Part shown: positions 5,987 to 39,285 of the stretch, piece by piece
How positions within the stretch are numbered: position 1 is the stretch's first letter
Layout: the number at the start of each line of letters is the position of its first letter
Source of the DNA: an uncultured Halobacteriovorax sp.
GTDB lineage: Bacteria > Bdellovibrionota > Bacteriovoracia > Bacteriovoracales > Bacteriovoracaceae
Direction of reading: 5' to 3'
Assembly: GCA_964352405.1 (NCBI GenBank)
Contig: CAYGRY010000005.1
Span: forward strand, 4,659-68,658
DNA: 64,000 bases
Position numbers and translations under genes: made by a program
The notes under the pieces: generated by a model
Databases searched by the model: none
The model's input: only the letters and a program-made list of their open reading frames with translations
What the model was told of the DNA's origin: nothing

Positions 5987-6012
5987 TTCTCGGTGCAATT
6001 TTCTAAACATTA
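5987..6012 (-). promoter_or_regulatory. putative sigma-28 (FliA) promoter of flagellin
   Basis: Minus strand reads TAATGTTT-N10-ACCGAGAA, compared with consensus TAAAGTTT-N11-GCCGATAA; implies a 5' UTR of about 110 nt. Confidence 0.4.
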
Positions 6013-6091
6013 AGAAATATTTTCCTATTATTTCAATGTTTTAGACTGACAAAAACAGTCAGATACCAAAAATAAAACTTCCTATATAAGT

Positions 6092-6118
6092 TAAAAAGAG
6101 TCGCTATAAAGACGATAA
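6092..6118 (+). promoter_or_regulatory. putative sigma-28 (FliA) promoter of the 6125-10293 operon
   Basis: TAAAAAGA-N11-GACGATAA; the -10 box ends 6 nt before the ATG at 6125 and there is no Shine-Dalgarno sequence. Confidence 0.45.
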
Positions 6119-6124
6119 GAATGA

Positions 6125-8782
6125 ATGGACGGCGGTAAACCACTTATATTCATCAAACCTTATTCAAAGACTTTAGAAAAGCTTGTGGAGGTTTTAAAAG
6201 AATCTTCTGAAGATCAAGGTACAGAAATTTATGAAATTGAAGATGTAAAAGAAGCCATTCAGATTATTCCACAACTCGGCCAATCATTAATTATTGCTGC
6301 TCACCCTAGAAAAACAGCGCAAATACTTCAAGCAGCAGGGAAGCTCATAAGAAAAATTCAATCAAAAGTTCTTCTGCTAACTCCAAAGCCAATACCAAGA
6401 AAAACAATTGATAAGTTTATGAAGGTTGGTCTGACAGAGTGTATTATTGAGCCTATCGCACCTAAAACACTTCAATACAAAGTTAATCTTCTTCTAAGAT
6501 CTATTGTTATAAAAAAAGAAGAAAGTGATTACGAACAAAACTTTGATTCAAACAATGAATCAATCAGTGATGATGAGCTTGCTCGAAAACAACTCAGCGC
6601 CAATATAAAAGAAGAAGACAAAAAGGAAGAAGTTGATGGCAGTGACCTATATGCAACTGAGGATAAAGTTGAAAAGAAAAAATCGACCTATAAAGAAGAA
6701 GCAATTGCAGGATATTACAAAGGTGCTTCAAAAAAGAAAGAGAACGCCATTGATGAAGAAGATGATGATGATACAGATAAAAATAACAGCGAAATAATTG
6801 AAAGCTATTATAAAAACAAAGTCGCGAAACGAGAAGAAGATGTTGAGGAAGAGAGCGAAAAGAAGGCTAAGAAGAGAGAGCTAGAACCTGATGATTTTGA
6901 AGAACTTTCAAAGTCTGCCAGTCTGCTTTTAGAAGACGATGAAGTTGAAGATGAAGAAAAAGCTGTAAAGCAAGAAGTAGAAAAAGAGAAAAGAAACTCC
7001 CTTACTTTTTTAGAATTAGAAGAAGAAAAAAAGAAAAAGGAATCAAAGCCAAAAGCTGAAGACATTGATGAAGCAGATGATGTCGCTAGCCATCATCTAG
7101 ACCTAATCAATGATCTTGAAGATAAAAAAGAAGAAGAAACTTCAGAGCAAGAAAAAGCTATCTCAACAAAGAAGCCTACGACAGTTCTTAACCTTGAAGA
7201 AGAACAACTTGAGGATGAAGACGAAACTTTAAATCCTGAAAAAGAAGAAAAAACTAAGAAATCAAAAACTCTGCTCCAGCTTGAAGCTGAAGAGTTAAAG
7301 ACAGAGGAAGCGCCAAAACCCGAGTCAGATAAGAACAAAGAAAAGCGAAGTGATGCAAAAAAATTAAATCTTGAAGATGAAGAGTTGCCTGATGAAGGAC
7401 TTGAAGATGTTGCAGAACAATTAGATGCTTTAAACTTAGCATCTAAGACCATTTTAGAGCTTGAAACAGATGAAGAAGAAGCTAATGAAGATGCTTTTGA
7501 AGAAGACATTAAAAAAGATGAAAAGAAGAAAGCAGCAAAACTAGATCTAGAAGAAGATCTGAAACCTAAAAAAGAAAAAGATGAGATTTTAGAAGAAGAG
7601 CAAATCTACGGCAAGAAGAAATCTAAACAACTAGCCTTGGAAACAGAAGAAGATTTAGATTACGGCAAGAAAAAACGCGAAGAGAAGCAAAAGCATCAAG
7701 TCGAACGTGAAATTCAAGAACGAGATGAAAACAAGCGCAAAGCTGAGCGAGAAAACCAGGGATATACCGAACGGGAAATGAATAATAAAAGCTCTGGTTA
7801 TACAGAGAATATTCAAGATCAGGGTGGCAATAAGGCTGATGTTCATTCAGACAAGCTTAAAACTCACTATGATAGTCGTACAGGCTTAAAACACAATGAC
7901 GAAGAATGGCGCGAAGTTGAGCGAGAAAGACGTGCAGACGAAGAGTTTAAAGCTGAAAAGAAGAACGAATTTGCCATGCCTGAAAAAACAGACTGGGGTG
8001 AGCAGACGATTGACTACTCTGATCTCAAGAAACAATTCGAGGAAACTGGCTATAGCTTAGGTAGTAAAAAAGAAGTTGGTCAATTTGAAGATGGAGAATC
8101 ATCTAAATCTGGAATGAAGTACACACAAGCTGTTGGTGCAAGTCCTGTAGCTGAAGATGAAGTACTTGAAGAGATTGTTGAAGAAGCTAAAGAAGAGGAA
8201 GAGAACCAAATTTTTGAAGCTGACTTAAAATCGAGCATCACACTCATTAAGTCACTAAATATGTATTACCAGTATTCAAAAAATCGTGATGATACAGTTA
8301 AAGCTATCTTAGAGATGGTCAGAAATGATTTTGGAGCATTAGCAGCGATCAAATATGGCAAGGGCCCCAAAGATGGGAAACTAAAAATTGAAACAATAGG
8401 CAATTGGCTTGATGATGCTTCAAAAGATTCAATCATTAACACCTACACCGATGCAGCAAGTTGCCCAATTTTACCGAGCTATTCAGATAAAACGTTTGAA
8501 CAAAAAAGAACAATGTTCTTCTACCCTTTTACCGAGGGCATTACCACTTTTGCTTGGGTTCAATGTTTTCTTCCTAACGGGATCAAAGAAAATGAACTTA
8601 AGGGACTGGAAGCTTCTCTAGAGACAATGCGCGGAGCTCTACTAGACGAGTTTTATGAGCTTGGGGGAACTGGTCCTTATGCTGAGATCAAAAAGAAAAC
8701 AAAAGAGAAAGAACAATCATCTTCTGTTGCAAAGATTGGAAGCTTTTTTGGTGGCCTATTTGGCAAAAAGAAGGCGGGCTAA
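6125..8782 (+). CDS. pseudo-receiver domain protein with a long E/K/D-rich low-complexity centre and a globular C-terminal domain
   Basis: N-terminal 125 aa has receiver-like beta-alpha periodicity, but LIIAAHPRK replaces the acceptor-Asp strand and IIEPI replaces the conserved-Lys strand; residues about 130-700 are polyampholyte (KEE/EED runs); the last 190 aa are non-repetitive. Confidence 0.75.
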   Translation: MDGGKPLIFIKPYSKTLEKLVEVLKESSEDQGTEIYEIEDVKEAIQIIPQLGQSLIIAAHPRKTAQILQAAGKLIRKIQSKVLLLTPKPIPRKTIDKFMKVGLTECIIEPIAPKTLQYKVNLLLRSIVIKKEESDYEQNFDSNNESISDDELARKQLSANIKEEDKKEEVDGSDLYATEDKVEKKKSTYKEEAIAGYYKGASKKKENAIDEEDDDDTDKNNSEIIESYYKNKVAKREEDVEEESEKKAKKRELEPDDFEELSKSASLLLEDDEVEDEEKAVKQEVEKEKRNSLTFLELEEEKKKKESKPKAEDIDEADDVASHHLDLINDLEDKKEEETSEQEKAISTKKPTTVLNLEEEQLEDEDETLNPEKEEKTKKSKTLLQLEAEELKTEEAPKPESDKNKEKRSDAKKLNLEDEELPDEGLEDVAEQLDALNLASKTILELETDEEEANEDAFEEDIKKDEKKKAAKLDLEEDLKPKKEKDEILEEEQIYGKKKSKQLALETEEDLDYGKKKREEKQKHQVEREIQERDENKRKAERENQGYTEREMNNKSSGYTENIQDQGGNKADVHSDKLKTHYDSRTGLKHNDEEWREVERERRADEEFKAEKKNEFAMPEKTDWGEQTIDYSDLKKQFEETGYSLGSKKEVGQFEDGESSKSGMKYTQAVGASPVAEDEVLEEIVEEAKEEEENQIFEADLKSSITLIKSLNMYYQYSKNRDDTVKAILEMVRNDFGALAAIKYGKGPKDGKLKIETIGNWLDDASKDSIINTYTDAASCPILPSYSDKTFEQKRTMFFYPFTEGITTFAWVQCFLPNGIKENELKGLEASLETMRGALLDEFYELGGTGPYAEIKKKTKEKEQSSSVAKIGSFFGGLFGKKKAG

Positions 8783-9880
8783 GTGAATAATAATGATAAG
8801 CAATATTTCTTTGTTGATTTAGATCATCTTGGAGAGACTCAATTATTTCCTTTTCATATCCATATCTTTAATCCAGCAAATGGAAAGTATAATCCCTACC
8901 TTTTTGCAAATAGCCCACTAACATCTGCAAAAAAAGAATTATTAGTTGAAATTGTTTCTCGTGGTGGGAAAATAGCTATTCCAATGAAACAAAAACGCAC
9001 TTTTCTTGTTGAACAAGAGGTTAAAGAGGAAGATATTCCTGATTTAGCTCCACAAAAAGTTCATTCACTTGAAAAGCGAAGACAAGAACTTCTTGAAAAG
9101 AATAATGAAGTAACAGAAAATTCATCAGTTAAGGCAAAAAATAATACTGACAGTGAAACTAGTAATGAAGAAAAGTTCCATTTTAAAGAGCAGCTGGCCA
9201 ATGCCGCTTCAAGCAATGATTATTCAGGTCTTATTAATTTTGTAAGAGAAGAAGTTATAACCTTTAGCCCGCGTATATCGATGATGACGACAATGTCTTC
9301 CCTAATTGCAGAAACTGTTCTCTTTGATGATAATTTTACAAATAGAACTGTCGCCTTAAGCTTCCTTCTGGCAAAAGGTTGTGGCATTACCGATCCAGAA
9401 TCACTTGGTGACCTTGTCTGCGCAGCCTACTTTTTTCATTTAGGATATACGCAACTTCCACATTCCTGTATGAACAGAGCTCAAGTTGAGTATTCAGACT
9501 CAACAAAAAAAGAATGGAAAAAACATCCGGGGCTTAGTCTCCACTTATTAAGAAAAGCTCAAATTGAATTATCACCAAGAACAAGAATTATTATTGAGCA
9601 GCACCATGAGCGTTATGATGGTCAGGGCTTTCCTCAAATGAAAAAAGGTTCTCACATTGAGCCTTTGGCACTTGTATTAGGAGCAGCCTCACATATATTA
9701 GAATACACAAGCGGCAAAGTATCTGGCACTCCCACAACGCTTCCATCATTTATATTAAATCTTAAAAATAAAACTTATCTACCTGGTATGGAAGTGGAAT
9801 TTGGTGGTTTAATAGAAGAAAGTTTAGCTCATTTAGTAGACACAATGAATTCAACTGATCAAAATAAGAAAGTAGCCTAA
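8783..9880 (+). CDS. HD-GYP-like domain protein with degenerate metal-binding motifs
   Basis: EQHHERYDGQGFP matches the HHExxDGxGYP signature; the expected LHDIGK block reads FHLGYT; GTG start abuts the upstream stop. Confidence 0.75.
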   Translation: MNNNDKQYFFVDLDHLGETQLFPFHIHIFNPANGKYNPYLFANSPLTSAKKELLVEIVSRGGKIAIPMKQKRTFLVEQEVKEEDIPDLAPQKVHSLEKRRQELLEKNNEVTENSSVKAKNNTDSETSNEEKFHFKEQLANAASSNDYSGLINFVREEVITFSPRISMMTTMSSLIAETVLFDDNFTNRTVALSFLLAKGCGITDPESLGDLVCAAYFFHLGYTQLPHSCMNRAQVEYSDSTKKEWKKHPGLSLHLLRKAQIELSPRTRIIIEQHHERYDGQGFPQMKKGSHIEPLALVLGAASHILEYTSGKVSGTPTTLPSFILNLKNKTYLPGMEVEFGGLIEESLAHLVDTMNSTDQNKKVA

Positions 9881-9894
9881 ATCGGGGATATTTT

Positions 9895-10293
9895 ATGCCA
9901 TTAAAAGCCAGTATGAACATTCTGGTCATTGACACAAATTCGACTATGAGACAAAACGTAAAAAAACTTTTGTCTGATATTGGCTTTAAAAATATTAAAG
10001 AAGCGGCTAATGGCAAGAAAGCTCTAGAAGTCTTAGAAGAAAGTAATGTAATTGAGCAACCTATTGAGTTTATTATTTCCGAACTTGAGCTTGAAAAGAT
10101 GACTGCTATTGAGCTTCTTGTAACAATTAGAAAAGATCCTAAAAATGCTAAAACTAAGTTTTTGTTGATGACTGGTGATAGTGACCAGCAAAAAATGATG
10201 CAAGCAATTCGTGCTGGTGTTAACAATGTTGTAGTTAAACCTTTTTCAGCAGATATGCTAAAAGAGAAAATTGCAAAGATTTATGGTCAGTAG
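9895..10293 (+). CDS. CheY-like single-domain response regulator with acceptor Asp replaced by Glu
   Basis: Aligns by eye along the whole of E. coli CheY: VIDTNSTMR (DD to DT), FIISELELE (D57 to E), LLMTGDS (Thr kept), VVVKPF (Lys kept). Confidence 0.85.
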   Translation: MPLKASMNILVIDTNSTMRQNVKKLLSDIGFKNIKEAANGKKALEVLEESNVIEQPIEFIISELELEKMTAIELLVTIRKDPKNAKTKFLLMTGDSDQQKMMQAIRAGVNNVVVKPFSADMLKEKIAKIYGQ

Positions 10294-10302
10294 CATCTAC
10301 TG

Positions 10303-11466
10303 CTAGTTACCTTGATACTCTTCATAAGGATACTTGTTCACCCCTTCCCAGTTATTCAAAGCTAGCTCAAGATTGGCAAAAGGTGGAAGCCCTGGTTTTA
10401 CTTTCTCTTTTACATCAATCTGAGCATAAGTTAGCTGTCTAGATTCTCGTCCTCTGGCAAAATCAAGATGATACATATTAGTCCACGTGCCTGTATTGAT
10501 AAAGACCTTACCATCGGCATTACTTCTAAAAATAGGTTCGTGAGTATGGCCAACAATAAGGGCTTTAAGGTCTTCTCTTTTATGTAGCATCTCTTGAGTG
10601 ATTTCTTCGTAGTCTTGAAATAGGTGAAGTTCGTTAACAGCGTAAGCGACCGCATTCTTAATACTTTTGTTTTGTCTAAACAAGAAATTAAATCTAACCA
10701 TGATAAAATAATAACAAGTCTGAAATAAAAATCTTAAAATGAATAAAGTATCGTAAATGAGACCATTGATAATAAACTTTTTAATCGGTCTAACAGCGTT
10801 GATATGACCACGCTCTTCTTTAAACTTATTAATGACACGAATAACGTAATAAGAGCCCCAAGGAGGAATAAAATGTTTAATTCCTTTTCCATCTTCAAAA
10901 ACTGAAGCCTTAGGATCGAATTGGTGAGCAATTTCATATTCATGACCATGTTTAATCGCTACTCCGGCCACTGGCATATATTCTTGAGTATTGTCCGTAA
11001 TAATTCGAACTTTCTCACGATCTTTTTCTTCAAAGCATTCTAAAAATCGCTGTTGTAAGCTTTCAAGAATCATTTCTGCATCATGATTACCGATAATATA
11101 AACGATCGTTTTTTTCTTACCAGCTGCAAAATCACTTAAAGCCTGCATCACTTCTCTGTGAGCTTTTAACATCATCTCTAGCTTCGCTAAAGCCGCTGGC
11201 TCACTCCAATACTCATCATCGTAAAAGGGAACAAAGGGAACTGCGAGATGATCAAAAAAATCACCATTAATAACTAATTCAACTTCTCTTTCTTTATATT
11301 CACCGCTGCAATAGTAATGTAGAAACTCCACCATCTGCTCATCGTAATGAAAGTCTTCTAAATAATTGCGCTGGCCCTTCACAATAGCACCGGCTCCCAG
11401 ATGAATATCCGAGATCACAATAATCGTTTTCTTAATGGGATGCTTACCTCTGCGGAGGAATCTCAT
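10303..11466 (-). CDS. calcineurin-like metallophosphoesterase with a hydrophobic segment
   Basis: Motifs VISDIHLG, INGDFFDH, IGNHD, KHGHE, VGHTHEP; the ATG at 11466 with GAAGG upstream is preferred over the TTG at 11481. Confidence 0.8.
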   Translation of the reverse strand: MRFLRRGKHPIKKTIIVISDIHLGAGAIVKGQRNYLEDFHYDEQMVEFLHYYCSGEYKEREVELVINGDFFDHLAVPFVPFYDDEYWSEPAALAKLEMMLKAHREVMQALSDFAAGKKKTIVYIIGNHDAEMILESLQQRFLECFEEKDREKVRIITDNTQEYMPVAGVAIKHGHEYEIAHQFDPKASVFEDGKGIKHFIPPWGSYYVIRVINKFKEERGHINAVRPIKKFIINGLIYDTLFILRFLFQTCYYFIMVRFNFLFRQNKSIKNAVAYAVNELHLFQDYEEITQEMLHKREDLKALIVGHTHEPIFRSNADGKVFINTGTWTNMYHLDFARGRESRQLTYAQIDVKEKVKPGLPPFANLELALNNWEGVNKYPYEEYQGN

Positions 11467-11873: not shown

Positions 11874-11900
11874 CCAAGATAATCCCCATTAAGCCGATAA
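11874..11900 (+). promoter_or_regulatory. possible sigma-28-type promoter (good -10, weak -35)
   Basis: CCAAGATA-N11-GCCGATAA, 17 nt upstream of the ATG at 11918, with AGGGGG as Shine-Dalgarno in between. Confidence 0.3.
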
Positions 11901-11917: not shown

Positions 11918-12454
11918 ATGCTTGATTTTATTCGCTCATTTAAAAAGAAAAAGACTCTAAACAAAGCTGAGCTGATTACTCGCTTTAGCGAACACCCTGA
12001 ACATGAATGGATAAAAAATGATCCTACGATCTCACGTCTTGTTCGCATTCTTTGCGACTCTTGGACAACCGAAGTCTATGAATTTCTAGCCAATGGCAAT
12101 GAGATCTTAATTATTAAGGCGCAAGGCCAACTTGCTAGCGCCATGTCGTCTATTAATAAGACCAACGTTGTCCTTGCCTACCCTGACCTCGTCGCCATTT
12201 TAAGGTCCGCCTCACCTATGCGAGGCGTAGCCATCTTAGCTCATGAAATTGGCCATATCGTTAAAGAACATTCAAAAAGAAAAATCTCAAATTTAGAAGC
12301 ACAGATAGAAGCTGATCGAGTTGCTTTTGAAATGGGTTTTGGTGAAGATCTTGAGCACGTATTGATTGAACATGAACACTCAATTGATTGTCGTGTAAGA
12401 ATAGCTAAGCTAACTCAATATTATTATTCTAGTAAGAATGAAGTATCAGAGTAA
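11918..12454 (+). CDS. putative zinc metallopeptidase (HEXXH)
   Basis: AILAHEIGHIVKEH followed by EADRVAFEMG, resembling M48 or ImmA/IrrE-type HEXXH peptidases. Confidence 0.6.
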   Translation: MLDFIRSFKKKKTLNKAELITRFSEHPEHEWIKNDPTISRLVRILCDSWTTEVYEFLANGNEILIIKAQGQLASAMSSINKTNVVLAYPDLVAILRSASPMRGVAILAHEIGHIVKEHSKRKISNLEAQIEADRVAFEMGFGEDLEHVLIEHEHSIDCRVRIAKLTQYYYSSKNEVSE

Positions 12455-13415
12455 TCCCGGATTTGAAGCTTATTTTGGCTTAATATTTACCCTTGTTGGA
12501 TTCATTATATTAATTGCTGGTCTTCATCCAGACATTGTGTGGTCTGGACAAAGACCCTCAATTTATTTTTTAATTCCATTTTGCTCTATATTTATTTTCG
12601 TTGGATTCATTCCAGTTCTTTTTCGAAGGAATTTTGAAATTGATGAAGTTCAACAAAAAATTGTCTCTTATAAAAAAATAATTAAAAAGTTTGATGTGAA
12701 AGAGTTTTCGTTTAGAGATATTTCAAGTCTAGAGATTGTAGAAAATCATCAAGAAGGTAAAAACTCATATGAATTATTAATTCTAAACTATGATCAAACT
12801 AAAAGTAGTGTCTTGAAAGCCTATTCCAAGCTTCTTCTTTTTTCCTTGCAAAAAGTTATTGAAAGTAAAGTTTTCAAGAATAGTCAGGACAGCGAACTAG
12901 TTCCAGTCTCTCCATCAACTAAAGCGATTCAGTTATATAGAGAAGGAACAAAAACATATATTGAACTTCCTTCAATTGGACTTATAAACCAGCCTTTATT
13001 TTGGATTGCAACATTACCTTTAGCTGGTTTTACTTTTATCAGTACTCTCTTCGTTAAAACACTTGAAAGTGATCCCCCTCTCATTTTTAATCTGGTCTTT
13101 ATCTTTCCATTGATCGTGGTTTTGATTCTACTTGCTTTAAAATTTTGCGTTAAGACGATGCTCATTTTGGATCATAAAAAGCTAAAAATAATTAAATCCT
13201 TTTTATTCTTAAAAAAATCCACAGAAGTAGAACTAGATCATATTGTCGATTTTTCATCTCCTGAGGACAGCACTCAAAGTCGCCGCTTGTTTCAATCAAA
13301 CTTATATTCGTTAAGTATCATTGTAAAAATGCAGGAGATTCATTGTGGCTATTTTAAAAATATTGATGATGTAAAATATGTCACTTATCTTATAAAATCT
13401 AAAAAACAAGCCTAG
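12438..13415 (+). CDS. membrane protein of unknown function
   Basis: 325 aa with two pairs of TM segments; 17-nt overlap with the upstream HEXXH gene suggests translational coupling. Confidence 0.6.
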
Positions 13416-23260: not shown

Positions 23261-24795
23261 TTGGTTTTAAGTTCTTCAATATCTTTTTTAAGACTAGTTA
23301 GTCGCTGATCAATTTTTAATTTTAGAGGCTCATAAAGTTCTTTAAAGCGTGCTTTCATTTTTGTTTTATCTGCTTTTCTATACTGTTTGATCGCTTTTGA
23401 TTCAGCTGATAATAAGCTTGCCACTTCTCCAAGTTGTTTAGCACTCTCTTCTATCTCACGATATAGCCTTGAAAGCATCGGGCTTTGCTCTTCAAGCTTA
23501 GTCGCCTGATCCATTGAATCTAGAATTAAAGATTGAAGAACCGGTGCAATGTCTTTGGCGTATCCTTGATCATATCTTTTAAAAGCTCGCCAAGTAACAG
23601 CGACATCAAGACGTTGGTGCCATAATTCATCAAGCTTACTGGCCATCTGAGAAAGTGTTTCATATTTTTCAAGTCGATACTGCAACGGCTTTGAAAGTGA
23701 GTCCCAAATCTTTTCTCTAAACTCTTGAAGATCACCGTTAAACTTATTGGCCGAACCTTCATAGAAACTTAATCGTCCTTGAAAGACATAACCACGAGAA
23801 TTAAATTGAACCCAGTCCATTGACTTAAACCATGGGTATGCTGACAGTATTGATGCCAGTCTTGCAGTCGTTCCCTTCGGTTTAACAGCAAGCTCATAAG
23901 TATACTCACCGCGAATCCAGTTCGTAGTTTGAACAAATTCAAATCGCTTAAACGGCACGAGTCCTTGAACCAGCTCCCCTTGAGACATAATTTCGACGGT
24001 GTCTGTTGATAAGATACGTCCAGGTATACTAGCGAGTTTTAAAAAGGCTTCACCTTCTAAGACTCCTGGAACTGCGGCCCAAATGACGTTTGAGTCTTTT
24101 GTCATGCGAACAATATGAGCAGATTTATGATCAATAATGACTTGATTAAATTGCTCGATATCGGCAGCCTCAAGACCAATCAAATCATAAGTTTGCAATC
24201 TGAATTGAGTAAACCAAACAACAGTAGCAAGAAGTGCAAATCCAGCAGCGATACCAGCACCAATTTTAAGCCATGGTCTTGATGTATCATTATCTTCAAT
24301 TATTGAAGATTCAAAATTTATATTGGGGGACGTCTTATCTTCATCAGTATTTATATCATGTTGGTGTTGACGCGGAAGATCTGGTACCTGGGCTTGATGA
24401 GAGGTCTCATCTAGGGACGACTCTAACTGTGAATCGTGGATGGCAACATGATCAATGGCCATTGAAACTTCGTCAGGCAGTGGCGGCAACTCAATATCTA
24501 CATCACTTGCGCTACGCAAAAGAAGATTGTGATCTTGGTCTGTTTCAATTGTTTCTGGAGATGATATTGGAGGCTTTTCTTCTATCTCAGCTTGTTCTTT
24601 GAAAATTAGATCTTTAAAAATTGTTTGATCAGCAAATGGAAGCCACGTTCCACCACCCTCTTTCCACACCAAATCTTTATGACCAATTACCCCAAGCGCG
24701 AAAAGATTAACCATCTCATCGGTTTGGTAAGGTCCACGGTGTTGATCACCTTTAAAAATGAACCACTGTCCATCATGATCTGAATGCTGTTTCAT
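23242..24795 (-). CDS. GYF_2 (DUF4339)-domain single-pass membrane protein
   Basis: N-terminus DGQWFIFKGDQHRGPYQTDEMVNLFALGVIGHKDLVWKEGGGTWLPF, acidic linker, TM segment IGAGIAAGFALLATVVWF, large C-terminal domain; start taken at the ATG at 24795. Confidence 0.65.
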   Translation of the reverse strand: MKQHSDHDGQWFIFKGDQHRGPYQTDEMVNLFALGVIGHKDLVWKEGGGTWLPFADQTIFKDLIFKEQAEIEEKPPISSPETIETDQDHNLLLRSASDVDIELPPLPDEVSMAIDHVAIHDSQLESSLDETSHQAQVPDLPRQHQHDINTDEDKTSPNINFESSIIEDNDTSRPWLKIGAGIAAGFALLATVVWFTQFRLQTYDLIGLEAADIEQFNQVIIDHKSAHIVRMTKDSNVIWAAVPGVLEGEAFLKLASIPGRILSTDTVEIMSQGELVQGLVPFKRFEFVQTTNWIRGEYTYELAVKPKGTTARLASILSAYPWFKSMDWVQFNSRGYVFQGRLSFYEGSANKFNGDLQEFREKIWDSLSKPLQYRLEKYETLSQMASKLDELWHQRLDVAVTWRAFKRYDQGYAKDIAPVLQSLILDSMDQATKLEEQSPMLSRLYREIEESAKQLGEVASLLSAESKAIKQYRKADKTKMKARFKELYEPLKLKIDQRLTSLKKDIEELKTNYNSSL

Positions 24796-27162: not shown

Positions 27163-29829
27163 CTATTGCAGACCACAATTTTTAAGATCTGATAGCTGCA
27201 AGTGAATATTTGAAGAAGCTGCTTCGCCGTAAAGAACATTATCATGATAATCAAAATATGATACTTCATGCATTCTTCTAAAACTCTCAGCAAAATGCTT
27301 ACCAGCATCATATGTATCATCGAACATAGTTTTTGGTTTATAAGGATTTTTATACTCTTGATAAGGAGTTGATTCATAATCCAGTAACTGTTCTAGTTCA
27401 TACTTACTTTTTAATGCTTTTTCACCAACTTCCGCACAAGCACTGAACAAGTTCTTCTTAGTATCAATCTGAGCACAGTCATTATTATAGCCGGCAGCAG
27501 CTAATGAATTACCAATTCCATTTCCAATACCAAAAGTTAAGACACCACAAAGTGTATTTTTACCATTCAGTTCAACATCAAACACATTCACATACTCAGT
27601 ATAGGTTTTTGATAAATTCGGAGTAAATGGAGGTGCCCCCCCCGGCAAGCTTGCACCAACAGAAGCACCAATCGTAAAGCCATGACATTTACCTAGAAAC
27701 CCACCACCTAATCTTCCATTTTCATCTTTTAACATCTGATCCATAAAGACTTTTAATCTGTCATATTGTTCTTCATCGCCTCCGACGGTCTGAACATACT
27801 CGTCAAAAAGTTCATTTAATGGTTGGTGAAAAAATTTGGTCGTTTCACCATCACTTAGAGGAGAATCGTTAATGAGAATACTGTCTAGATTATTTTCTTT
27901 TACTTCTGGATTAAGTTCTTCAATTTGCTTGTTAACTTGTGACTGAAACAACAAAGAACCAATACCTTTAATTCCACGAATCACTTCTTGTTCTGATATA
28001 TATGAAGTTAATGCAACTGCACCTAAAGCATATTTTCTATCTTTGCTTGTTCTATTAATTGCAAACTGAAAAAACTTTTCCATTTGCTCTTTGAATTTTA
28101 CTGAATTTTGACCATTGCCACCAAACTTAGCTTCTCTAAGAGCAATGTTGCCACGGCCTTGATCAATACCAATACCAATGGTAGCACTTAAGGCAGTATC
28201 AACTCCAAGTACTGACCCGCCAAAACCAACCCCAGTATTTTGAAATCCCCCCTCATAATCACCGGCTTGACGACAATCTCCGAAGGTTTGAATTTTTCCT
28301 ACATTTAATGATGCCGAAGCACCAACTCCAAGTCCATAACTCGCGCCCCCGCCTGCGGCACAATAACAGTTCAACTTTAAACTACTCTCATCTATTGCCG
28401 CTTGAATTGGATCTTGTTGTGACAAACACTCAATTCCACCTTCAATCTGTAGAAATTTTCCAGCACCAGCAGTAAGAGCTCCACTAATACCAATGCCGTG
28501 TCTTGAACCACTATGATCACAGCTCTCTGGCGATAATGCTCCCTCTTTACCAGCGGCTAATACTTTCGAGTAACTACTTGGGTCCATGAGTAATTCTGAT
28601 TGCCCTCGCTCACTTCTTCTTTCTTTTAAAACCTCGAGCATTTGAAGTCTTTCTCGATCACGAATATTCTGAATTTCTCTTAATAGAGCATCTCTTGGCA
28701 TGCCATTTGTTAGAGCATTAATGTATTCTTGCTTATTTTCTTCCCAAATCTTTGGATCAACTTCACCTGCGATTGCCTCAATTGAGTCTTTATATTTTTT
28801 ATCACAAAGAGATTTTTGTTCTTTTAAAAGATTTTTATCAGCTTCATCAAAAAATCTTAATGCTTCAAGATGCATGCCTCTTAATGAGTTTGAACATGAA
28901 GATGGATCACTAAGTGGACTGGCCTTGAAGGCTTCAGAAACTGTCTGGTGACCAGTCATTATATTAGCTTTTGCTTGATTATAAATTTGAGATGAAGTTG
29001 GTGCATTACCTCTATCTAAACCTGCTGATTCTTTCCTAAATAATTGCTCTGTCTGAGTCCGTGTCAATCCCAAATTTGGTTGATTAGCTACCAGTTTTGG
29101 TTGTTCAACTTCAACTGTATTTTGTTTCATTTGCGCTCTAAGCTGACTTTGATAAGGTGTTTTATCATTAGCTAATTCATTGTTTAAATGACTACACCAT
29201 CTAGGAATAAACTTGGCCGTTTCAGCTTGAAAATCTGTTTCAGCTCCAAGATTTGCAAATATATTACTCTCATCATTTACTTTTTTACTTTCGGCCTCAT
29301 CTGCAATCGCAATATATGCACCAATGTTATTAACAGTGCTTCTTGCGTTGTTACAGTAATTCTTATTGGAGTAGTAATTGTGAGAATTAGAGCAATGTTT
29401 TTTGTACCAATTCGTAATTTTATCAATAACTGCTTGTTTCGCATAAAAGCGACAAAAACTTGAAGAGCCGCTTTCTTTCATTGCTTGTTCTAATTGGTAC
29501 AGGCCAGTATTATTGTACCAAGAAGAAATATTTCTTTTTACTGGTACCATGACGTTAGGACTGGCTTTATATTCAACATCTCTATTTTCATAACCTTTGC
29601 CACCAGAAGTGTGAATATATTCAAACTTAGTACAATTTTCTTTTCCTTGATTACTACCAATACCAAGAGCACAGTGACTTAGATCATTCTGAAGGTGACT
29701 CTCTTTAAAAAAATTTGGATCAGCTTTACTAATTTCCTCATCACAATTTTTTGCACGCGCAATTTCATAGATATTACCGCTTGCAATATTTGCACTTAGA
29801 GAAAATATGAAAAGAAAGATGATTCTCAT
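27163..29829 (-). CDS. large secreted Cys-rich protein with Gly/Ala/Ser-rich segments, function unknown
   Basis: 888 aa with signal peptide MRIIFLFIFSLSANIASG; about 19 Cys; segments such as GIGISGALTAGAG, AAGGGASYGLGVGASAS, GVGFGGSVLGVDTALSATIGIGIDQG, FGIGNGIGNSLAAAG. Confidence 0.8.
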   Translation of the reverse strand: MRIIFLFIFSLSANIASGNIYEIARAKNCDEEISKADPNFFKESHLQNDLSHCALGIGSNQGKENCTKFEYIHTSGGKGYENRDVEYKASPNVMVPVKRNISSWYNNTGLYQLEQAMKESGSSSFCRFYAKQAVIDKITNWYKKHCSNSHNYYSNKNYCNNARSTVNNIGAYIAIADEAESKKVNDESNIFANLGAETDFQAETAKFIPRWCSHLNNELANDKTPYQSQLRAQMKQNTVEVEQPKLVANQPNLGLTRTQTEQLFRKESAGLDRGNAPTSSQIYNQAKANIMTGHQTVSEAFKASPLSDPSSCSNSLRGMHLEALRFFDEADKNLLKEQKSLCDKKYKDSIEAIAGEVDPKIWEENKQEYINALTNGMPRDALLREIQNIRDRERLQMLEVLKERRSERGQSELLMDPSSYSKVLAAGKEGALSPESCDHSGSRHGIGISGALTAGAGKFLQIEGGIECLSQQDPIQAAIDESSLKLNCYCAAGGGASYGLGVGASASLNVGKIQTFGDCRQAGDYEGGFQNTGVGFGGSVLGVDTALSATIGIGIDQGRGNIALREAKFGGNGQNSVKFKEQMEKFFQFAINRTSKDRKYALGAVALTSYISEQEVIRGIKGIGSLLFQSQVNKQIEELNPEVKENNLDSILINDSPLSDGETTKFFHQPLNELFDEYVQTVGGDEEQYDRLKVFMDQMLKDENGRLGGGFLGKCHGFTIGASVGASLPGGAPPFTPNLSKTYTEYVNVFDVELNGKNTLCGVLTFGIGNGIGNSLAAAGYNNDCAQIDTKKNLFSACAEVGEKALKSKYELEQLLDYESTPYQEYKNPYKPKTMFDDTYDAGKHFAESFRRMHEVSYFDYHDNVLYGEAASSNIHLQLSDLKNCGLQ

Positions 29830-29838: not shown

Positions 29839-29866
29839 TTATCGGCTAATTTTCTTATAGACTAAA
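29839..29866 (-). promoter_or_regulatory. possible sigma-28-type promoter of the 888-aa gene
   Basis: Minus strand reads TTTAGTCT-N12-GCCGATAA; the -10 ends 9 nt before the ATG at 29829 and there is no Shine-Dalgarno sequence. Confidence 0.35.
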
Positions 29867-34100: not shown

Positions 34101-34871
34101 ATGAGTGATTCAAATAATATGACCCTCAATCTGAAAATTTGGCGTCAATCAACAACAAAAGATAAAGGCCAAATCGTCGATTACGTTCTTGAAGGTGTAT
34201 CTCCTGATATGTCATTTCTTGAAATGATCGACATGCTTAATGAGCAGCTTGTTGCTAAAAATGACGACCCAATTGCTTTTGATCACGATTGCCGCGAAGG
34301 AATTTGTGGCATGTGTTCAATGATGATTAACGGTCAAGCTCATGGACCAGAAAAAGCAACGACGACTTGTCAGCTTCATATGAGAAGCTTCAAAGACGGA
34401 GACACAATTGTCATCGAGCCATGGCGTGCTAGAGCATTCCCCGTCCTAAAGGACTTAATGGTTGATCGCTCTGCCTTTGACAGGATTATAGAAGCTGGTG
34501 GTTTTGTTAACGTTAATACTGGTAACGCCGGTGACGCTAACGAAATTCTTATTCCAAAAGAAGCCGCTGACCTTGCCATGGATGCAGCCGCTTGTATTGG
34601 TTGTGGAGCTTGTGTAGCTAGCTGTAAAAATGCTTCTGCTATGCTTTTTGTTTCAGCTAAAATTTCTCAACTTGCTCTTCTTCCACAAGGTGAAGTTGAA
34701 GCTGATCAGCGTGCTCTTGCTATGGTTGAGAAGATGGATGAACTTGGCTTTGGTAACTGTACTAACGAAGCAGAATGTGAAGCCAGCTGTCCAAAAGACA
34801 TTAGCATCAGCAATATCGCCCGTATGAATAGAGGCTTTTTAAAAGCAGCTATTACATCTAAAACGAAATAA
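34101..34871 (+). CDS. sdhB: succinate dehydrogenase iron-sulfur subunit
   Basis: [22 protein letters not shown] and CEASCP cluster motifs. Confidence 0.95.
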
Positions 34872-34873
34872 CA

Positions 34874-35965
34874 TTGGAAGTTTTTGGCCCAACGATTGAG
34901 ATTTTCCTGCGTCGTGTACGAACCATGGCAAGGGAAATTTTATCTCAGGAAGTGGGCCTTAAACTTCATCGCACTCGCTTTGAGTGGAATCAAAAACTCT
35001 ACCCTCTTCATCTTGTTATTTTCGATCACTCTTCTAAACTTGGGGAGTATGATCCTAGTCAATGGCGTCTTGGATTATCTTCACGTTTGATGAAAGAGGC
35101 CAAGGACGCCGTTATCCGTGACATTCTTCGCCACGAAATCGCCCATATGATGACTCATCTTCACTTCGGTGAAAATATCCAAGCCCACGGCAGTGAGTTT
35201 AAAAATATCTGCTCTCGCTATGGCTTCGATCATGAGATTTCTAAAGCGACCCTTGATCTGGCTATGGCCAATGATCATTATGAAGGCGATCTTCAAACTG
35301 AAAAACTTTTATCTCGCTTAAAAAAATTAATGGCCTTAAGTGAATCCGATAATACTCACGAAGCCGAACTTGCCATGAGTAAGGCTAATGAACTTTTAAT
35401 CAAACATAATCTTGATCGCCTCGAAATAGATCATGATGATGAACTGGTTTATGTCCTACCGGTCATGTTTAGCCCAAAATCAAATGCTAAGATGCACGCG
35501 GTGTATGAAATTTTAAAAACATTTTTTGTCGCTCCTGTTTTTACCAAACGCCAAGGTCAAGTAGCCCTTGATGTGGTCGGTGATCAGGCCAGTGTTAAAA
35601 TAGCAGAATATGTTAGTGCATTTTTACAAGATGAATTAGAGCGTCTTTGGGGCAAGGCAAAAAAAACCAACAATCTCAAAGGGCTTCGCGCCAAGAATTC
35701 ATTCTTCTCCGGTGTTGCTCGTGGTTACGTTGAAAAAATTCAAACGACTCAAAAAGAATTCCACCAAAGTGCTCTTATGAAAGTGCAAAGTTCTTCCCAG
35801 AAGATGTTGGCAAGAGTTTACGGCAGACTTTCTTCAACCAGTTCAAGCTCTAAGGCTGATAGCAATGCTTTACATGCAGGAAGCTTGGCCGGAAAACAGA
35901 TGAACATAAGAACTGGAATCGAGAAAAGTGGTAATCAAGGGAGACTTTTAAGTTATGACTCCTAA
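34874..35965 (+). CDS. SprT-like zinc-peptidase motif protein with a DUF2786-like segment
   Basis: ILRHEIAHMMTHLHFG...HGSEFK (SprT-like HExxH) and LKKLMALSESDNTHEAELAMSKANELLIKHNL (DUF2786-like); start uncertain (TTG 34874 or ATG 34925). Confidence 0.6.
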   Translation: MEVFGPTIEIFLRRVRTMAREILSQEVGLKLHRTRFEWNQKLYPLHLVIFDHSSKLGEYDPSQWRLGLSSRLMKEAKDAVIRDILRHEIAHMMTHLHFGENIQAHGSEFKNICSRYGFDHEISKATLDLAMANDHYEGDLQTEKLLSRLKKLMALSESDNTHEAELAMSKANELLIKHNLDRLEIDHDDELVYVLPVMFSPKSNAKMHAVYEILKTFFVAPVFTKRQGQVALDVVGDQASVKIAEYVSAFLQDELERLWGKAKKTNNLKGLRAKNSFFSGVARGYVEKIQTTQKEFHQSALMKVQSSSQKMLARVYGRLSSTSSSSKADSNALHAGSLAGKQMNIRTGIEKSGNQGRLLSYDS

Positions 35966-36395
35966 AGAATTAGAAATTGTTTTTAGAAAAATCTGTCGCT
36001 TCGATAAAACTCTCGCTATAGATTTTACCGTACCGAAGCCTGGAACTTCTCATTACAAGTTCACTGTTGATGAAAGACACCTTGCTAGTCCAACACAATG
36101 TCACGGTGGCGTTTTGGCCGCTGTCATGGATGCGACCATGGGTGTAGCAGTTCTAACTGAAGCTGTTCAAAGTGGAAATCTATGTTCGACTGTTGAATTT
36201 AAAATTAATTATCTTAATCGCGCCATCCTCGGTGATCATTTAGATGCCTACGGTGAAGTTGAATTTATTGGTAATCGCTTGATTGTTGCCAATGCTGTTA
36301 TTAAATGTGGTGAAAAACTCATTGCTAAGGCGATGGGTACATTCTCATTATACCCTGCGGATAAAACGCAAATTGCCAATTGGGCCAAAGGATAA
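35955..36395 (+). CDS. PaaI-family hotdog-fold thioesterase
   Basis: CHGGVLAAVMDATMG motif and 146 aa length. Confidence 0.8.
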   Translation: MTPKELEIVFRKICRFDKTLAIDFTVPKPGTSHYKFTVDERHLASPTQCHGGVLAAVMDATMGVAVLTEAVQSGNLCSTVEFKINYLNRAILGDHLDAYGEVEFIGNRLIVANAVIKCGEKLIAKAMGTFSLYPADKTQIANWAKG

Positions 36396-36398
36396 ATC

Positions 36399-36791
36399 AT
36401 GCCTGAAAATGTGAAGTTTACTCTTTTAGGATTCACTGCCTTAATGGCCGCAGTAGGATTTGGAGCTTTTGGAGCCCATGGACTAGAACAATCTTTGTCG
36501 GCTAAACAACTCGCTACTTATCAAACCGGTATTGAATATCTTTTCTACCATGGTCTTGGAGCCCTCGCCTTAGCCAGTCTGAGCCAAAACCTAAACTTAG
36601 AGTTTAAGCGATCTAGATGGGCCATGACTCTAGGAATGCTGATTTTTAGCGGCGGCTGTATGCTTTACGCCGTAACTAGCCAAAAGTTCATCGCCATGGC
36701 GATTCCTCTAGGCGGACTTGGCTATCTTTTTTGTTGGGCCCTCGCCATCAAGGACTTAGCAGCTAAATTTAAAAACCCTTTAAAGTCCTAA
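36399..36791 (+). CDS. DUF423 (YgdD-like) small membrane protein
   Basis: 130 aa, four TM segments, FGAFGAHGL motif. Confidence 0.75.
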   Translation: MPENVKFTLLGFTALMAAVGFGAFGAHGLEQSLSAKQLATYQTGIEYLFYHGLGALALASLSQNLNLEFKRSRWAMTLGMLIFSGGCMLYAVTSQKFIAMAIPLGGLGYLFCWALAIKDLAAKFKNPLKS

Positions 36792-36842
36792 AAACCTGCA
36801 CTTTTAGACTCTTAAAAAAATCTAATTAATCGCAAGATTTAC

Positions 36843-36869
36843 TCAAGTTTTAAAGCAAAGAGCCGATAA
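36843..36869 (+). promoter_or_regulatory. sigma-28 (FliA)-type promoter, best consensus match in the window
   Basis: TCAAGTTT-N11-GCCGATAA (7/8 plus 8/8 against TAAAGTTT-N11-GCCGATAA), 32 nt upstream of the ATG at 36902. Confidence 0.55.
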
Positions 36870-36901
36870 AGAAATATCATTGATTACGGGTGAGGTTAGC
36901 C

Positions 36902-37279
36902 ATGTCTAATTTGGTCAAAAATTTTGTTACTTCATGTACTTTAACGTTTAAAGCGTTTGAGCATGAAGTGATTATTTCGAAGAACCAAAGTACGATGTGG
37001 AACTTTATGGCCGTCAATAAAAGACGCGATAAGGTCTACGCTGTTTACTGTGCTCCAAGACTTAACTCTGCCAAAGCACTTATTAAAGTTGCGCTTAAAA
37101 AAGTCCCTGCCGATACAAGACTCGTTGTTGTAACTTCCTCATATACAGATGAAGAATATGAACAAGCCAACAAAGATGGTTACTCTTTAGTAACGCTCTC
37201 GATGCTATCTAAGTACGGAACGGAAATGTTAGAGATTAAGCAAAAAGAAGAAGCTAACTCACTTTCAAAAGCCGCCTAA
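36902..37279 (+). CDS. hypothetical cytoplasmic protein
   Basis: 125 aa; GGTGAGG lies 6 nt upstream of the ATG at 36902, preferred over the GTG at 36890. Confidence 0.6.
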   Translation: MSNLVKNFVTSCTLTFKAFEHEVIISKNQSTMWNFMAVNKRRDKVYAVYCAPRLNSAKALIKVALKKVPADTRLVVVTSSYTDEEYEQANKDGYSLVTLSMLSKYGTEMLEIKQKEEANSLSKAA

Positions 37280-37996
37280 TTAAACTTTTTTCTTTTCAGA
37301 ACCATGCAAGATTTTATGTTGCTGAGTGATCACGCGAAAGCCTTGTGCTTCGTCTTCATTCCAAGCAATAACATCTAAGACTCTCTCAAACGGCATTGAC
37401 TCTCCAAGATTAAAGGCAGGAGTTAAAACCCAAGGAAATGTTGTATCGACACTAGAATGAGCGAGCATTGAATGAAGTTCATTCTTAGCTTGGACGACAT
37501 CATCAAAATCAATACGTGATTCGATTACACTTTTTATTTGAAATTTATTTGGAAACTGAGTTGCAAGCTTTGCAACAAGAGACAAGTTCGTCTTTACTTT
37601 GGTGCATGGAGTTTTGTAATCAAAGCTTACAAAGTCGATAGCATCAAAGAGCTCACTCACAACTCTTGTCCCAGCTGCCTCAACGTTAACCCAATAGCCT
37701 TTTTTCTTTAAGACGGACACAAGCTCTAAAACTTGTGGCAAAATTTTTGGATGAAGTGGATCACCACCAGTAATTGAAACTCGCTTAAACTTATCTCCAC
37801 CTTGCTCGATGACCTGAGCTAGGACTTGATCTAGAGTTAATCTTTCTCCAGCGTTAAAATCCCAAGTATCGATTGAATCGCAGTTTACACAGCCGATATT
37901 ACAGCCTTGAAAACGCACAAAAACCTGAGGTGTTCCAATATGAACGCCTTCACCCTCTGAGGCCTTATAAATGGCATTAATCGCAAATAAAGACAA
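37280..37996 (-). CDS. queE: 7-carboxy-7-deazaguanine synthase (radical SAM)
   Basis: VFVRFQGCNIGCVNCDS cluster motif and ITGGDPL; TTG start. Confidence 0.85.
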   Translation of the reverse strand: MSLFAINAIYKASEGEGVHIGTPQVFVRFQGCNIGCVNCDSIDTWDFNAGERLTLDQVLAQVIEQGGDKFKRVSITGGDPLHPKILPQVLELVSVLKKKGYWVNVEAAGTRVVSELFDAIDFVSFDYKTPCTKVKTNLSLVAKLATQFPNKFQIKSVIESRIDFDDVVQAKNELHSMLAHSSVDTTFPWVLTPAFNLGESMPFERVLDVIAWNEDEAQGFRVITQQHKILHGSEKKKV

Positions 37997-38077
37997 AGCT
38001 ACCCCGGATTAGTCTTAAAACGGGGTTGTAACATGCCAGAGGGGTCTATGCCAGTATGAATACGTAATTATTACAGG

Positions 38078-38809
38078 TTAGAAGCTAGCGATGAGGCCAG
38101 TTGTGTAAGTGTAATCGAATTTTCGGGCACCTGTGACGGCAGGTAGATTTCTATACTCTCCCTTAAAACCAACCTTTAATGAAAAAATTGAAGAAAGAGT
38201 TGAACTCACTGAAGGGCCAAAGTTGAATTCCCAAGCGTCTCCGATCTCAATATCTTTTAGGTATTCCGAGAAGAACTTGAAAGAGACGTTTTTATTTAGC
38301 TTCTGATCATAATCCCCATAAAGTCTTAATTGATTATTATGAGAGTATGAATGATCTGTTTTTTCCTCGACCACATAACGATAACCAGCTTCAATATTAG
38401 ATTTCTTGTCGTCTAGATTGAAAAGTTTGTAGACGCTACCAATATCTGTGAAATAGCGTTTTTCATAACCTTTAAAACGATCCCCTGCAATTTTTTGTGC
38501 GACAAAAACCGCCCAATGTTCAGCATATGTGTATTCATCTTTTAATCTTGCCGACCAATTTCTTGCATCAATCGTGCTATCTGCTTCGCCTAAAGTGTAG
38601 TGACCATCAAGGCTGACTGCATGCTTACCCAAATCAACACTCGTTTCAGATTTTACGTTGTAAACTGAGACATCAGTATTTCCACCAGACTTTAAAATAT
38701 TCACTTCAGAAGTATTTTTCCAATCGGCTAGAGAAGACAAAGAAATTCCCATAAGGGAGACAATAAGAACTAAGTTGATTTTTTTCATGGGTGAAACTAT
38801 AAGCCGCAA
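38078..38809 (-). CDS. outer-membrane beta-barrel protein (DUF481-like)
   Basis: Signal peptide, alternating-hydrophobicity strands, C-terminal aromatic ...GLIASF. Confidence 0.55.
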   Translation of the reverse strand: MRLIVSPMKKINLVLIVSLMGISLSSLADWKNTSEVNILKSGGNTDVSVYNVKSETSVDLGKHAVSLDGHYTLGEADSTIDARNWSARLKDEYTYAEHWAVFVAQKIAGDRFKGYEKRYFTDIGSVYKLFNLDDKKSNIEAGYRYVVEEKTDHSYSHNNQLRLYGDYDQKLNKNVSFKFFSEYLKDIEIGDAWEFNFGPSVSSTLSSIFSLKVGFKGEYRNLPAVTGARKFDYTYTTGLIASF

Positions 38810-39201
38810 AATTCAATTAGCAAAGAATATTTTCGCTGCAAAGCTTCAATAGGTGCGTCAGGATCAGCTTTTTGCAATAAGCCAGCAATCATAATTTTTT
38901 CTTCATCGCTGGCATCAAATTCTTTTAATACGAAAAAATCTCTCCACTCTGGAGAATCATAAATCTTTGAAAATTCATCAGGCGAGAGCTTGTCACTTTC
39001 TATAAGACGATTCAAATCGATAACCTCATCAACAAAAGCTTGAGGCGAGGAGCTCTGATTAGATCTCGAATAAATCTCTCGCATGGCCAAGTGGCAAGGG
39101 TCTTCACTGCTAATTGAAGCTGGGGCACGAACAATTCGCTTCGAGGATGATGTATATCCTATGGCTAGAACTAAAATAAATATATTGAGAAACCTCATCA
39201 T
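38797..39201 (-). CDS. small secreted hypothetical protein
   Basis: Signal peptide MMRFLNIFILVLAIGYTSS; 13-nt overlap with the downstream OMP gene. Confidence 0.6.
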   Translation of the reverse strand: MMRFLNIFILVLAIGYTSSSKRIVRAPASISSEDPCHLAMREIYSRSNQSSSPQAFVDEVIDLNRLIESDKLSPDEFSKIYDSPEWRDFFVLKEFDASDEEKIMIAGLLQKADPDAPIEALQRKYSLLIEFCGL

Positions 39202-39207
39202 ACAGCT

Positions 39208-39235
39208 TTATCGGTTCGTAATACTGGACACTTAA
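39208..39235 (-). promoter_or_regulatory. possible sigma-28-type promoter (leaderless geometry)
   Basis: Minus strand reads TTAAGTGT-N12-ACCGATAA; the -10 ends 6 nt before the ATG at 39201 and there is no Shine-Dalgarno sequence. Confidence 0.4.
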
Positions 39236-39257
39236 GTCTTTTAGATGATTTTTCTGA

Positions 39258-39285
39258 TCAAGTTTTCTCTCAGTATTTACGATAA
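39258..39285 (+). promoter_or_regulatory. possible sigma-28-type promoter (leaderless geometry)
   Basis: TCAAGTTT-N12-TACGATAA; the -10 ends 8 nt before the ATG at 39294 and there is no Shine-Dalgarno sequence. Confidence 0.45.

Follow-up and report, generated by a model that had tools for sequence, protein, structure and literature searches.

Which RNA polymerase reads a promoter-like element that recurs in the genome of an uncultured Halobacteriovorax sp., and which genes does this element serve? The element was noticed in a stretch of 64,000 nucleotides (nt), hereafter the window (contig CAYGRY010000005.1 of assembly GCA_964352405.1, C5:4659-68658), where seven sites resembling promoters of the flagellar sigma factor FliA (sigma-28) lie upstream of a flagellin gene and of six other genes. 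Our analysis of the window and of the whole genome (2.99 Mb, 168 contigs, 38% GC) suggests that the seven sites are very probably FliA-dependent promoters of an expanded, attack-type regulon. RNA polymerase carrying FliA would read the seven sites, and the FliA regulon would have grown from the flagellar late-gene set to about 100 promoters, as in Bdellovibrio bacteriovorus, driving flagellins, FliD and a Flp pilin, but mostly lineage-specific uncharacterised genes. FliA would be active in a motile, attack-type state, presumably after its release from FlgM, so that all promoters would fire together. At a third to two fifths of the promoters, where 6-9 nt lie between the end of the -10 box and the start codon, transcription would start on the A of that codon and give a leaderless mRNA without a Shine-Dalgarno sequence; in the window this would apply to the sites at 6091, 29839, 39208 and 39258.

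All seven sites listed by the sequence-only reading were found at their coordinates and on their strands when read in the window, and they were then scored with a matrix trained on the whole genome. The flagellin promoter at 5987-6012(-) reads TAATGTTT-N10-ACCGAGAA (13 of 16 consensus matches, 13.6 bits) and lies about 120 nt upstream of the start codon. Divergent from it is the weak promoter of a gene for an 885-amino acid (aa) protein, 6091-6118(+), which reads TTAAAAAG-N12-GACGATAA and scores 12.4 bits (about 11 of 16 matches in the N11 register used earlier). The promoter of a gene encoding an HEXXH protein, 11874-11900(+), has a perfect -10 box and a poor -35 box (CCAAGATA-N11-GCCGATAA; 12 of 16, 16.1 bits), and that of an 888-aa protein gene, 29839-29866(-), reads TTTAGTCT-N12-GCCGATAA (13 of 16, 15.6 bits). 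The near-consensus site at 36843-36869(+), TCAAGTTT-N11-GCCGATAA, precedes a gene for a 125-aa protein; with 15 of 16 matches and 21.4 bits it ranks first by matrix score among all sites of the genome. The second divergent pair consists of the promoters of a 134-aa protein gene, 39208-39235(-), TTAAGTGT-N12-ACCGATAA, and of a 454-aa protein gene, 39258-39285(+), TCAAGTTT-N12-TACGATAA, each with 13 of 16 matches and 17.0 bits. Both divergent pairs (5866-6124 and 39202-39293) are real, and the -35 variant TCAAGTTT does occur twice exactly, at the 36843 and 39258 sites. The wording "seven matches to TAAAGTTT-N11-GCCGATAA" was an overstatement: only 36843-36869 fits closely, and the other six sites show 11-13 of 16 matches, with -10 boxes that are mostly good, -35 boxes that are poor to fair and spacers of 10-12 nt. 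A strict search (N11, at most three mismatches) returned 36843-36869(+) as its sole match where 1.1 were expected by chance; the strict consensus was thus unusable as stated and the genome-trained matrix was used instead. The same reading had described the targets as flagellin and unknown secreted or membrane genes, which holds for three of the six non-flagellin targets (the 888-, 134- and 454-aa proteins); the 885-, 178- (HEXXH) and 125-aa proteins are cytoplasmic-looking.

Analysis of the -10 core CCGATAA across the genome revealed 395 copies, of which 86 (22%) are intergenic, a proportion that is 3-5% for control 7-mers of similar composition; 69 of these 86 face a gene within 200 nt. A -35-like T-N-A-A-G, centred 18-21 nt upstream, accompanies the intergenic copies only and is found at none of the 308 coding copies. 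Iterative training of a two-block matrix converged on T[A/T/C]AAGTT-N11/12-nCCGATAA, which equals the sigma-28 consensus and bears out the earlier assignment to the class III flagellar promoter form. The proposed genome-wide scan with a position weight matrix was run with one half of the contigs used to train the matrix and the other to test it, and with dinucleotide shuffles as control. In this cross-validated scan 109 upstream regions reached at least 13 bits (13.3 in shuffles), 91 at least 14 bits (6.4) and 46 at least 16 bits (1.5), so that the motif is strongly enriched upstream of genes and decisively exceeds what AT-rich DNA would yield; about 96 sites stand above the shuffle level genome-wide. 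Orientation was tested in regions between same-direction genes, because an antisense control over all upstream regions counts divergent regions twice and is therefore misleading. In these tandem regions sense sites outnumber antisense sites 41:4 at 14 bits or more and 22:0 at 16 bits or more. The enrichment over shuffles and the sense bias together imply that about 100 of the sites are real. Within the window, which has 34 upstream regions, seven sites of at least 12 bits were seen where shuffles predict 0.57 (Poisson p = 2e-6), and five of the seven score at least 15.6 bits, a range in which shuffles yield about 1-3% of the real count.

Comparison with related genomes showed that the promoter is kept before orthologs for six of the seven window sites, including across genera. 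The flagellin promoter keeps its position in each of the four same-genus genomes and is nearer to the consensus there (TAAAGTTT-N10-TCCGATGA/TCCGATTA). Upstream of the 885-aa gene, five same-genus genomes share an unchanged GACGAT with ATG 6-8 nt further on, and homologs in two other genera carry stronger sites (15.8 and 16.6 bits) with the same geometry. The CCGATAA box of the HEXXH gene is kept before its same-genus orthologs and stands 6 nt before ATG in three other genera; the promoter of the 125-aa gene is kept in three of the five orthologs examined (19.5, 17.4 and 18.4 bits). Three same-genus genomes retain the divergent arrangement of the 454-aa and 134-aa genes; in them the 454-aa orthologs are 94%, 79% and 74% identical and the boxes are either preserved or swapped for equivalents with the distance to the start codon retained. 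In these three genomes the 134-aa promoter also keeps its close spacing, as in GCCGATAA-N6-ATG (19.8 bits) and GCCGAATA-N6-GTG, and a sigma-28 box at 5-9 nt from the start is found even before 454-aa homologs of only 22-24% identity from two other genera. Since the 888-aa gene lacks orthologs to footprint, its promoter is supported only by its score. The two weakest window sites (13.6 and 12.4 bits) are rescued by their conservation in related genomes.

Only one gene of the genome passes the FliA/WhiG model (TIGR02479, 274.8 bits against a cut-off of 189.6). It sits in an flhF-flhG-fliA cluster, and the closest solved structures to its product are WhiG and E. coli FliA. The protein is 96-99% identical to FliA of Halobacteriovorax sp. 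and Bdellovibrionales metagenome-assembled genomes (MAGs) and 79-87% identical to that of Bacteriovoracaceae, Bacteriovorax and H. marinus; on sequence grounds the genome belongs to the Bdellovibrio and like organisms (BALOs). FlgM is encoded as well (PF04316, 56.5 bits). Each of the five flagellin paralogs is preceded at 50-122 nt by a sigma-28-like site, whose -10 box is typically CCGAAA or CCGAGA, and fliD is among the top 100 motif targets.

The top 100 targets are spread across 55 Pfam families without any one family dominating. Flagellin, FliD, two T2SSE ATPases, ClpP, an HD domain and a protein kinase are represented, and flagellar families account for 2 of the 25 families shown. A gene for a Flp-like prepilin (C36:2127-2380 or 2186-2380; MKDVIAFLNDENGQTSTEYILLVAVVAL..., with a G-xxxx-EY motif and a Pfam match below the cut-off) is preceded by a 15.9-bit site at a distance of 30 nt. 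A second Flp-like open reading frame (ORF) lies downstream of the prepilin gene at C36:2472-2579.

A distinctive property of these promoters is their closeness to the start codon. In the window, the 6091-6118(+) site ends 6 nt before ATG 6125 and the 39208-39235(-) site 6 nt before ATG 39201, both in leaderless geometry; the 29839-29866(-) site ends 9 nt before ATG 29829, and its mRNA would be leaderless or have a leader of 1-2 nt; the 39258-39285(+) site ends 8 nt before ATG 39294, and its mRNA would be leaderless or have a 1-nt leader. The 11874 promoter is predicted to give a short leader of about 10 nt with an AGGGGG Shine-Dalgarno sequence before ATG 11918, and the 36843 promoter a leader with a GGTGAGG Shine-Dalgarno sequence before ATG 36902. 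Across the genome, the start codons that open an ORF show a sharp peak at 6-7 nt behind CCGATAA, which is not seen with control 7-mers. A start codon is located 4-9 nt downstream of 29 of 67 gene-proximal sites scoring at least 16 bits and for 43 of 133 target genes at 14 bits or more, so that the leaderless share of strong sites is 32-43%. Among 60 leaderless-type starts, 46 are ATG, 11 GTG and 3 TTG. In genes of this type the -10 box fills the Shine-Dalgarno position, and no Shine-Dalgarno sequence is present.

The published table of transcription start sites (TSSs) of B. bacteriovorus allows this spacing to be interpreted. In 70 of its 74 scorable FliA promoters the TSS is the 7th or 8th nt after the -10 box, with 6 or 7 nt lying between CCGAxAA and the TSS base, and transcription begins on the very first base of the annotated start codon in 21 of 93 FliA promoters against 4 of 47 non-FliA promoters (PMC3627812). 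The box-to-start spacing in the present genome equals this measured distance, which would imply leaderless mRNAs; by this analogy, the close-set sigma-28 promoters probably do give leaderless transcripts. The pattern TNAA-N16-18-CCGAWA-N7-8-ATG was also counted in related genomes, with the reversed pattern and the same pattern at N13-14 spacing as controls. In 32 other genomes of the family it occurs 546 times (177 for the reversed control, 224 for N13-14), exceeding both controls in 31-32 of the 32 genomes; in 23 genomes from other families of the phylum it occurs 252 times (91 and 162, respectively), a weaker excess than in the family. By a simple test for a hydrophobic N-terminus, signal-peptide-like N-termini are present in 74% of the leaderless-type sigma-28 targets, against 30% of the leadered ones and 32-41% of background genes. 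The leaderless sigma-28 subclass appears to encode mainly proteins with signal-peptide-like N-termini, which by this test look exported or membrane-bound. The exactly leaderless FliA transcripts of B. bacteriovorus include those of six of seven 'cell wall surface anchor' genes, an RTX exoprotein, YapH and a lipoprotein (PMC3627812).

Several observations weigh against the reading of these sites as an attack-type FliA regulon that is often leaderless. The dependence on FliA is deduced from the identity of the motif. Of the canonical members, flgM (C54:3107-3484), fliA (C47:2686-3471) and both genes for methyl-accepting chemotaxis proteins (MCPs; C6:28045-29613 and C41:20812-22050), the only two MCP genes in the genome, have no site of at least 10 bits upstream. 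The two weakest window sites, those of the flagellin and 885-aa genes, are near chance level by score, and between 12 and 13 bits shuffles give nearly the same number of sites as the real sequence. Some housekeeping genes (a tRNA synthetase, a Mur ligase) rank among the top 100 targets and may be false positives. The gene calls come from a simple script based on coding potential and, like the test for signal peptides, are home-made heuristics. Among the 60 leaderless-type starts, 14 (23%) are GTG or TTG, codons that initiate poorly on leaderless mRNAs in E. coli. Leaderlessness is also not exclusive to sigma-28, since candidates occur at sigma-70-like -10 boxes too: TAnnnT is found 6 nt before the start codons of 171 genes, against about 70 at neighbouring spacings. 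In the window, such candidates (TATAAT, TAGAAT or TAGCAT, 6 nt, ATG) are found at 41078(-), 43497(-) and 15443(+). Signal-peptide-like N-termini are not enriched among the sigma-70-type candidates (34%). Leaderlessness thus seems to be general in this genome, yet over-represented at sigma-28 promoters.

These points bear on four other explanations. The first accepts the FliA promoters as real and takes the leaderless starts as artefacts, the true start codons lying further downstream or transcription beginning further upstream. The start codons were picked by a simple rule, the TSSs are predicted from geometry, and the share of GTG and TTG starts would fit such an error. We nevertheless consider it unlikely. 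The sharp 6-7 nt peak is absent for control 7-mers and coincides with the TSS distance measured in B. bacteriovorus, where exactly leaderless FliA transcripts have been mapped (PMC3627812). With a 6-nt spacer, moreover, the TAA of the -10 box is a stop codon in the reading frame of the gene and rules out a start further upstream; the leaderless-type ATGs coincide exactly with the beginning of signal-peptide-like N-termini, and the geometry is kept across genera despite sequence divergence.

A second explanation, that of an ordinary late-gene regulon for flagella and chemotaxis with no tie to a predatory attack phase, would be in keeping with the source of the sequence: the genome is an uncultured MAG, predation and phase-specific expression are assumed from its taxonomic labels, and expression of the targets in the attack phase would be expected by analogy. 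The size and composition of the regulon make this explanation quite improbable. About 100 promoters are several times the classical FliA regulon, which in E. coli covers roughly 1% of the genome (PMC12622784). Most of the targets lack a flagellar annotation and are scattered over the 55 Pfam families, and their composition (Flp pilin, ClpP, HD-domain, surface and secreted proteins) parallels that of B. bacteriovorus.

More improbable still is a real promoter class that is recognised by another sigma factor instead of FliA, or that needs an extra activator, and that would then not be a FliA regulon. This would agree with the absence of the motif from flgM, fliA and the MCP genes, with the presence of other sigma-70-family genes in the genome and with a -35 box (T-N-AAG) and 12-nt spacer slightly off the enterobacterial consensus; the link of the sites to FliA in this organism, as said, comes from the motif. 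However, a single gene scores above the FliA/WhiG cut-off, the CCGATAA-type -10 box is the hallmark of sigma-28 and is carried by all the flagellin genes, and Bdellovibrio FliA acts on the same motif variant in E. coli (PMC5430801). Finally, chance matches to a degenerate AT-rich pattern, as the strict search, the 11-13 matches of six sites and the 12-13 bit scores might suggest, are hardly credible and already largely refuted by the five sites of at least 15.6 bits, the window excess, the orientation bias and the conservation of six of the seven promoters before orthologs.

With FliA-dependent promoters as the preferred reading, the window targets can be described as follows. The flagellin gene, 5032-5865(-), encodes 277 aa beginning MGLRINTN (Pfam Flagellin_N 3.7e-40, Flagellin_C 8.5e-22). 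Its start is ATG 5865, 32 codons inside the longest ORF, and not GTG 5961; Flagellin_N begins at residue 37 of the longest ORF. The TSS is predicted at about 5979-5980, which would give a 5' untranslated region (UTR) of about 114 nt. The predicted 5'UTR (5865-5980, minus strand) contains a perfect 7-base-pair hairpin near its 5' end, GTTCACA/TGTGAAC at 5956-5973, and a longer pairing that covers the AAGGAGG Shine-Dalgarno sequence (minimum free energy -33.5 kcal/mol, z = -3.0 against shuffles).

On the other side of the divergent region, 6125-10293(+) is a probable operon comprising the 885-aa acidic/lysine-rich, cytoplasmic-looking protein, an HD-domain protein (8783-9880; Pfam HD_5 2.6e-15) and a CheY-like single-domain receiver (9895-10293; Pfam Response_reg 7.7e-19), with intergenic gaps of 0 to 14 nt. 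It looks like a signalling operon under a conserved sigma-28 promoter of leaderless geometry. Between the two divergent promoters, 6013-6090, and especially 6040-6063, is highly conserved in five same-genus genomes; the stretch includes a palindrome, GACTGAC-N6-GTCAGA, of which one relative has a compensatory CCGAC/GTCGG version. It may serve as the operator of a regulator that controls both promoters.

The region 11918-13415(+) encodes the 178-aa HEXXH (HEIGH) mini-peptidase, with a weak match to Pfam Peptidase_M48 (2.7e-4), overlapping a 325-aa protein with multiple transmembrane segments. The 888-aa protein, 27163-29829(-), is of the secreted type, with a signal-peptide-like N-terminus (MRIIFLFIFSLSANIASG), and contains Cys. 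Its homologs are absent from four same-genus genomes, and one weak partial match was found among 30 related genomes (E = 6e-9, residues 464-615); the gene is a lineage-specific, species-level orphan under a good sigma-28 promoter. The 125-aa protein, 36902-37279(+), is conserved and cytoplasmic-looking, with orthologs in four same-genus and two other-genus genomes. Its AlphaFold2 model (predicted local distance difference test, pLDDT, 80) has a weak likeness to PD-(D/E)xK nucleases (EndoMS 5gkj, E = 8e-4, template modelling score 0.51), and the fold search also returned MspJI and HindIII; this nuclease likeness plays no part in the main argument. The region 38078-39201(-) encodes the 134-aa secreted-type protein (N-terminus MMRFLNIFILVLAIGYTSSS) overlapping an outer-membrane-type DUF481 protein (4.3e-29), and 39294-40658(+) encodes the 454-aa protein, whose N-terminus (MNHVIMGLVVLLHSFFIYAQD) is a signal peptide or transmembrane segment. 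No Pfam or NCBIfam match was found for the 885-, 888- and 454-aa proteins and the other uncharacterised window targets, and no Rfam RNA family was found in the window.

Three further high-scoring sites (15.7-16.0 bits) have no plausible downstream gene and lie inside or antisense to ORFs: 23744-23772(-), 54918-54945(+) and 57990-58017(-). They could be chance matches, internal or antisense promoters, or promoters of small RNAs; a terminator and promoter scan around two of them revealed nothing above chance.

The closest known system is that of B. bacteriovorus HD100 (Karunker et al. 2013, Avidan et al. 2017). The statement in the sequence-only reading that Bdellovibrio transcriptomics tied much of the attack-phase programme to a FliA-type motif proved correct: TTAAG-N16-CCGATA was found at 92 of 140 mapped attack-phase promoters (PMC3627812), and in E. 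coli without a fliA gene of its own such promoters respond to Bdellovibrio FliA by activation (PMC5430801). That motif is equivalent to T-N-AAGTT-N11/12-nCCGATAA, and its 92 promoters are comparable in scale to the approximately 100 sites of the present genome. In both organisms the majority of targets lie outside the flagellar set and are uncharacterised, the targets include genes for Flp pilin, ClpP and HD-domain proteins, the flagellin 5'UTR is long (164 nt in HD100, about 114 nt predicted here), the flagellins (Bd0606 in HD100) have a CCGAAA/CCGAGA-type -10 box and many promoters abut the start codon (Table S2 of the HD100 study). The differences are that the present genome comes from another family, Bacteriovoracaceae, and from an uncultured MAG with 38% GC; that two MCP genes carry the motif in HD100, whereas neither does here; and that the leaderless share appears to be higher here, 32-43% by geometry against 23% by mapped TSS.

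Like the E. coli and Salmonella class 3 promoters (TAAAGTTT-N11-GCCGATAA), the sites described here have the CCGATAA -10 core and an A-rich -35 box with AAG, and the two systems share the components of the FliA/FlgM partner switch and the control of flagellin and fliD. The enterobacterial regulon is small, motility-centred and normally leadered; the present one is several-fold larger, mostly non-flagellar and often leaderless by geometry. It also differs in its canonical members, as flgM, fliA and the chemoreceptor genes are not detectably included; FliA control of flgM and of chemoreceptor genes, as in enterobacteria, does not extend to the whole family.

Leaderless mRNAs are known from Actinobacteria, Deinococcus-Thermus and archaea, where they have usually been described for housekeeping-sigma promoters. 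The sigma-28 cases resemble them in that the -10 box lies 6-8 nt before ATG, no Shine-Dalgarno sequence is present and the 5' end would be the start codon. Unlike those cases, they are over-represented at the promoters of an alternative sigma factor and tied to secreted proteins. A search of the available literature found no relevant account linking leaderless mRNAs to Bdellovibrio, sigma-28 or FliA, and the word leaderless is absent from the two B. bacteriovorus papers (PMC3627812, PMC5430801).

The concept of a FliA attack regulon has already been published for B. bacteriovorus (PMC3627812, PMC5430801, PMC12622784); for Bacteriovoracaceae only a TAD/flp promoter had been suggested, Avidan et al. 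having predicted a FliA-driven Flp/TAD pilin gene for BALOs (PMC5430801). What has been described less is the leaderless subclass with its bias towards secreted proteins, a subclass that the published Bdellovibrio data already contain in latent form. It is possible, though doubtful at present, that sigma-28 leaderless mRNAs form a distinct class conserved across Bdellovibrionota, serving for the most part secreted and surface proteins that belong to the motile or attack state, in which a sigma switch is coupled to Shine-Dalgarno-independent initiation. If so, these mRNAs might be loaded directly onto 70S ribosomes in non-growing attack-phase cells, and their translation would be privileged or differently regulated.

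If the proposed regulon is correct, FliA as master regulator of the attack programme would extend from Bdellovibrio to the other main predatory family, Bacteriovoracaceae, which would support an ancient expansion of the sigma-28 regulon in the phylum. The motif would also offer a cheap, sequence-only means of nominating attack-phase genes in uncultured predators, here about 100 candidates, mostly unannotated secreted proteins. For organisms of the Bacteriovoracaceae type the close-set promoters bear on start-codon annotation and on the design of promoters and ribosome-binding sites, and the leaderless subclass suggests a testable link between the choice of sigma factor and the mode of translation initiation.

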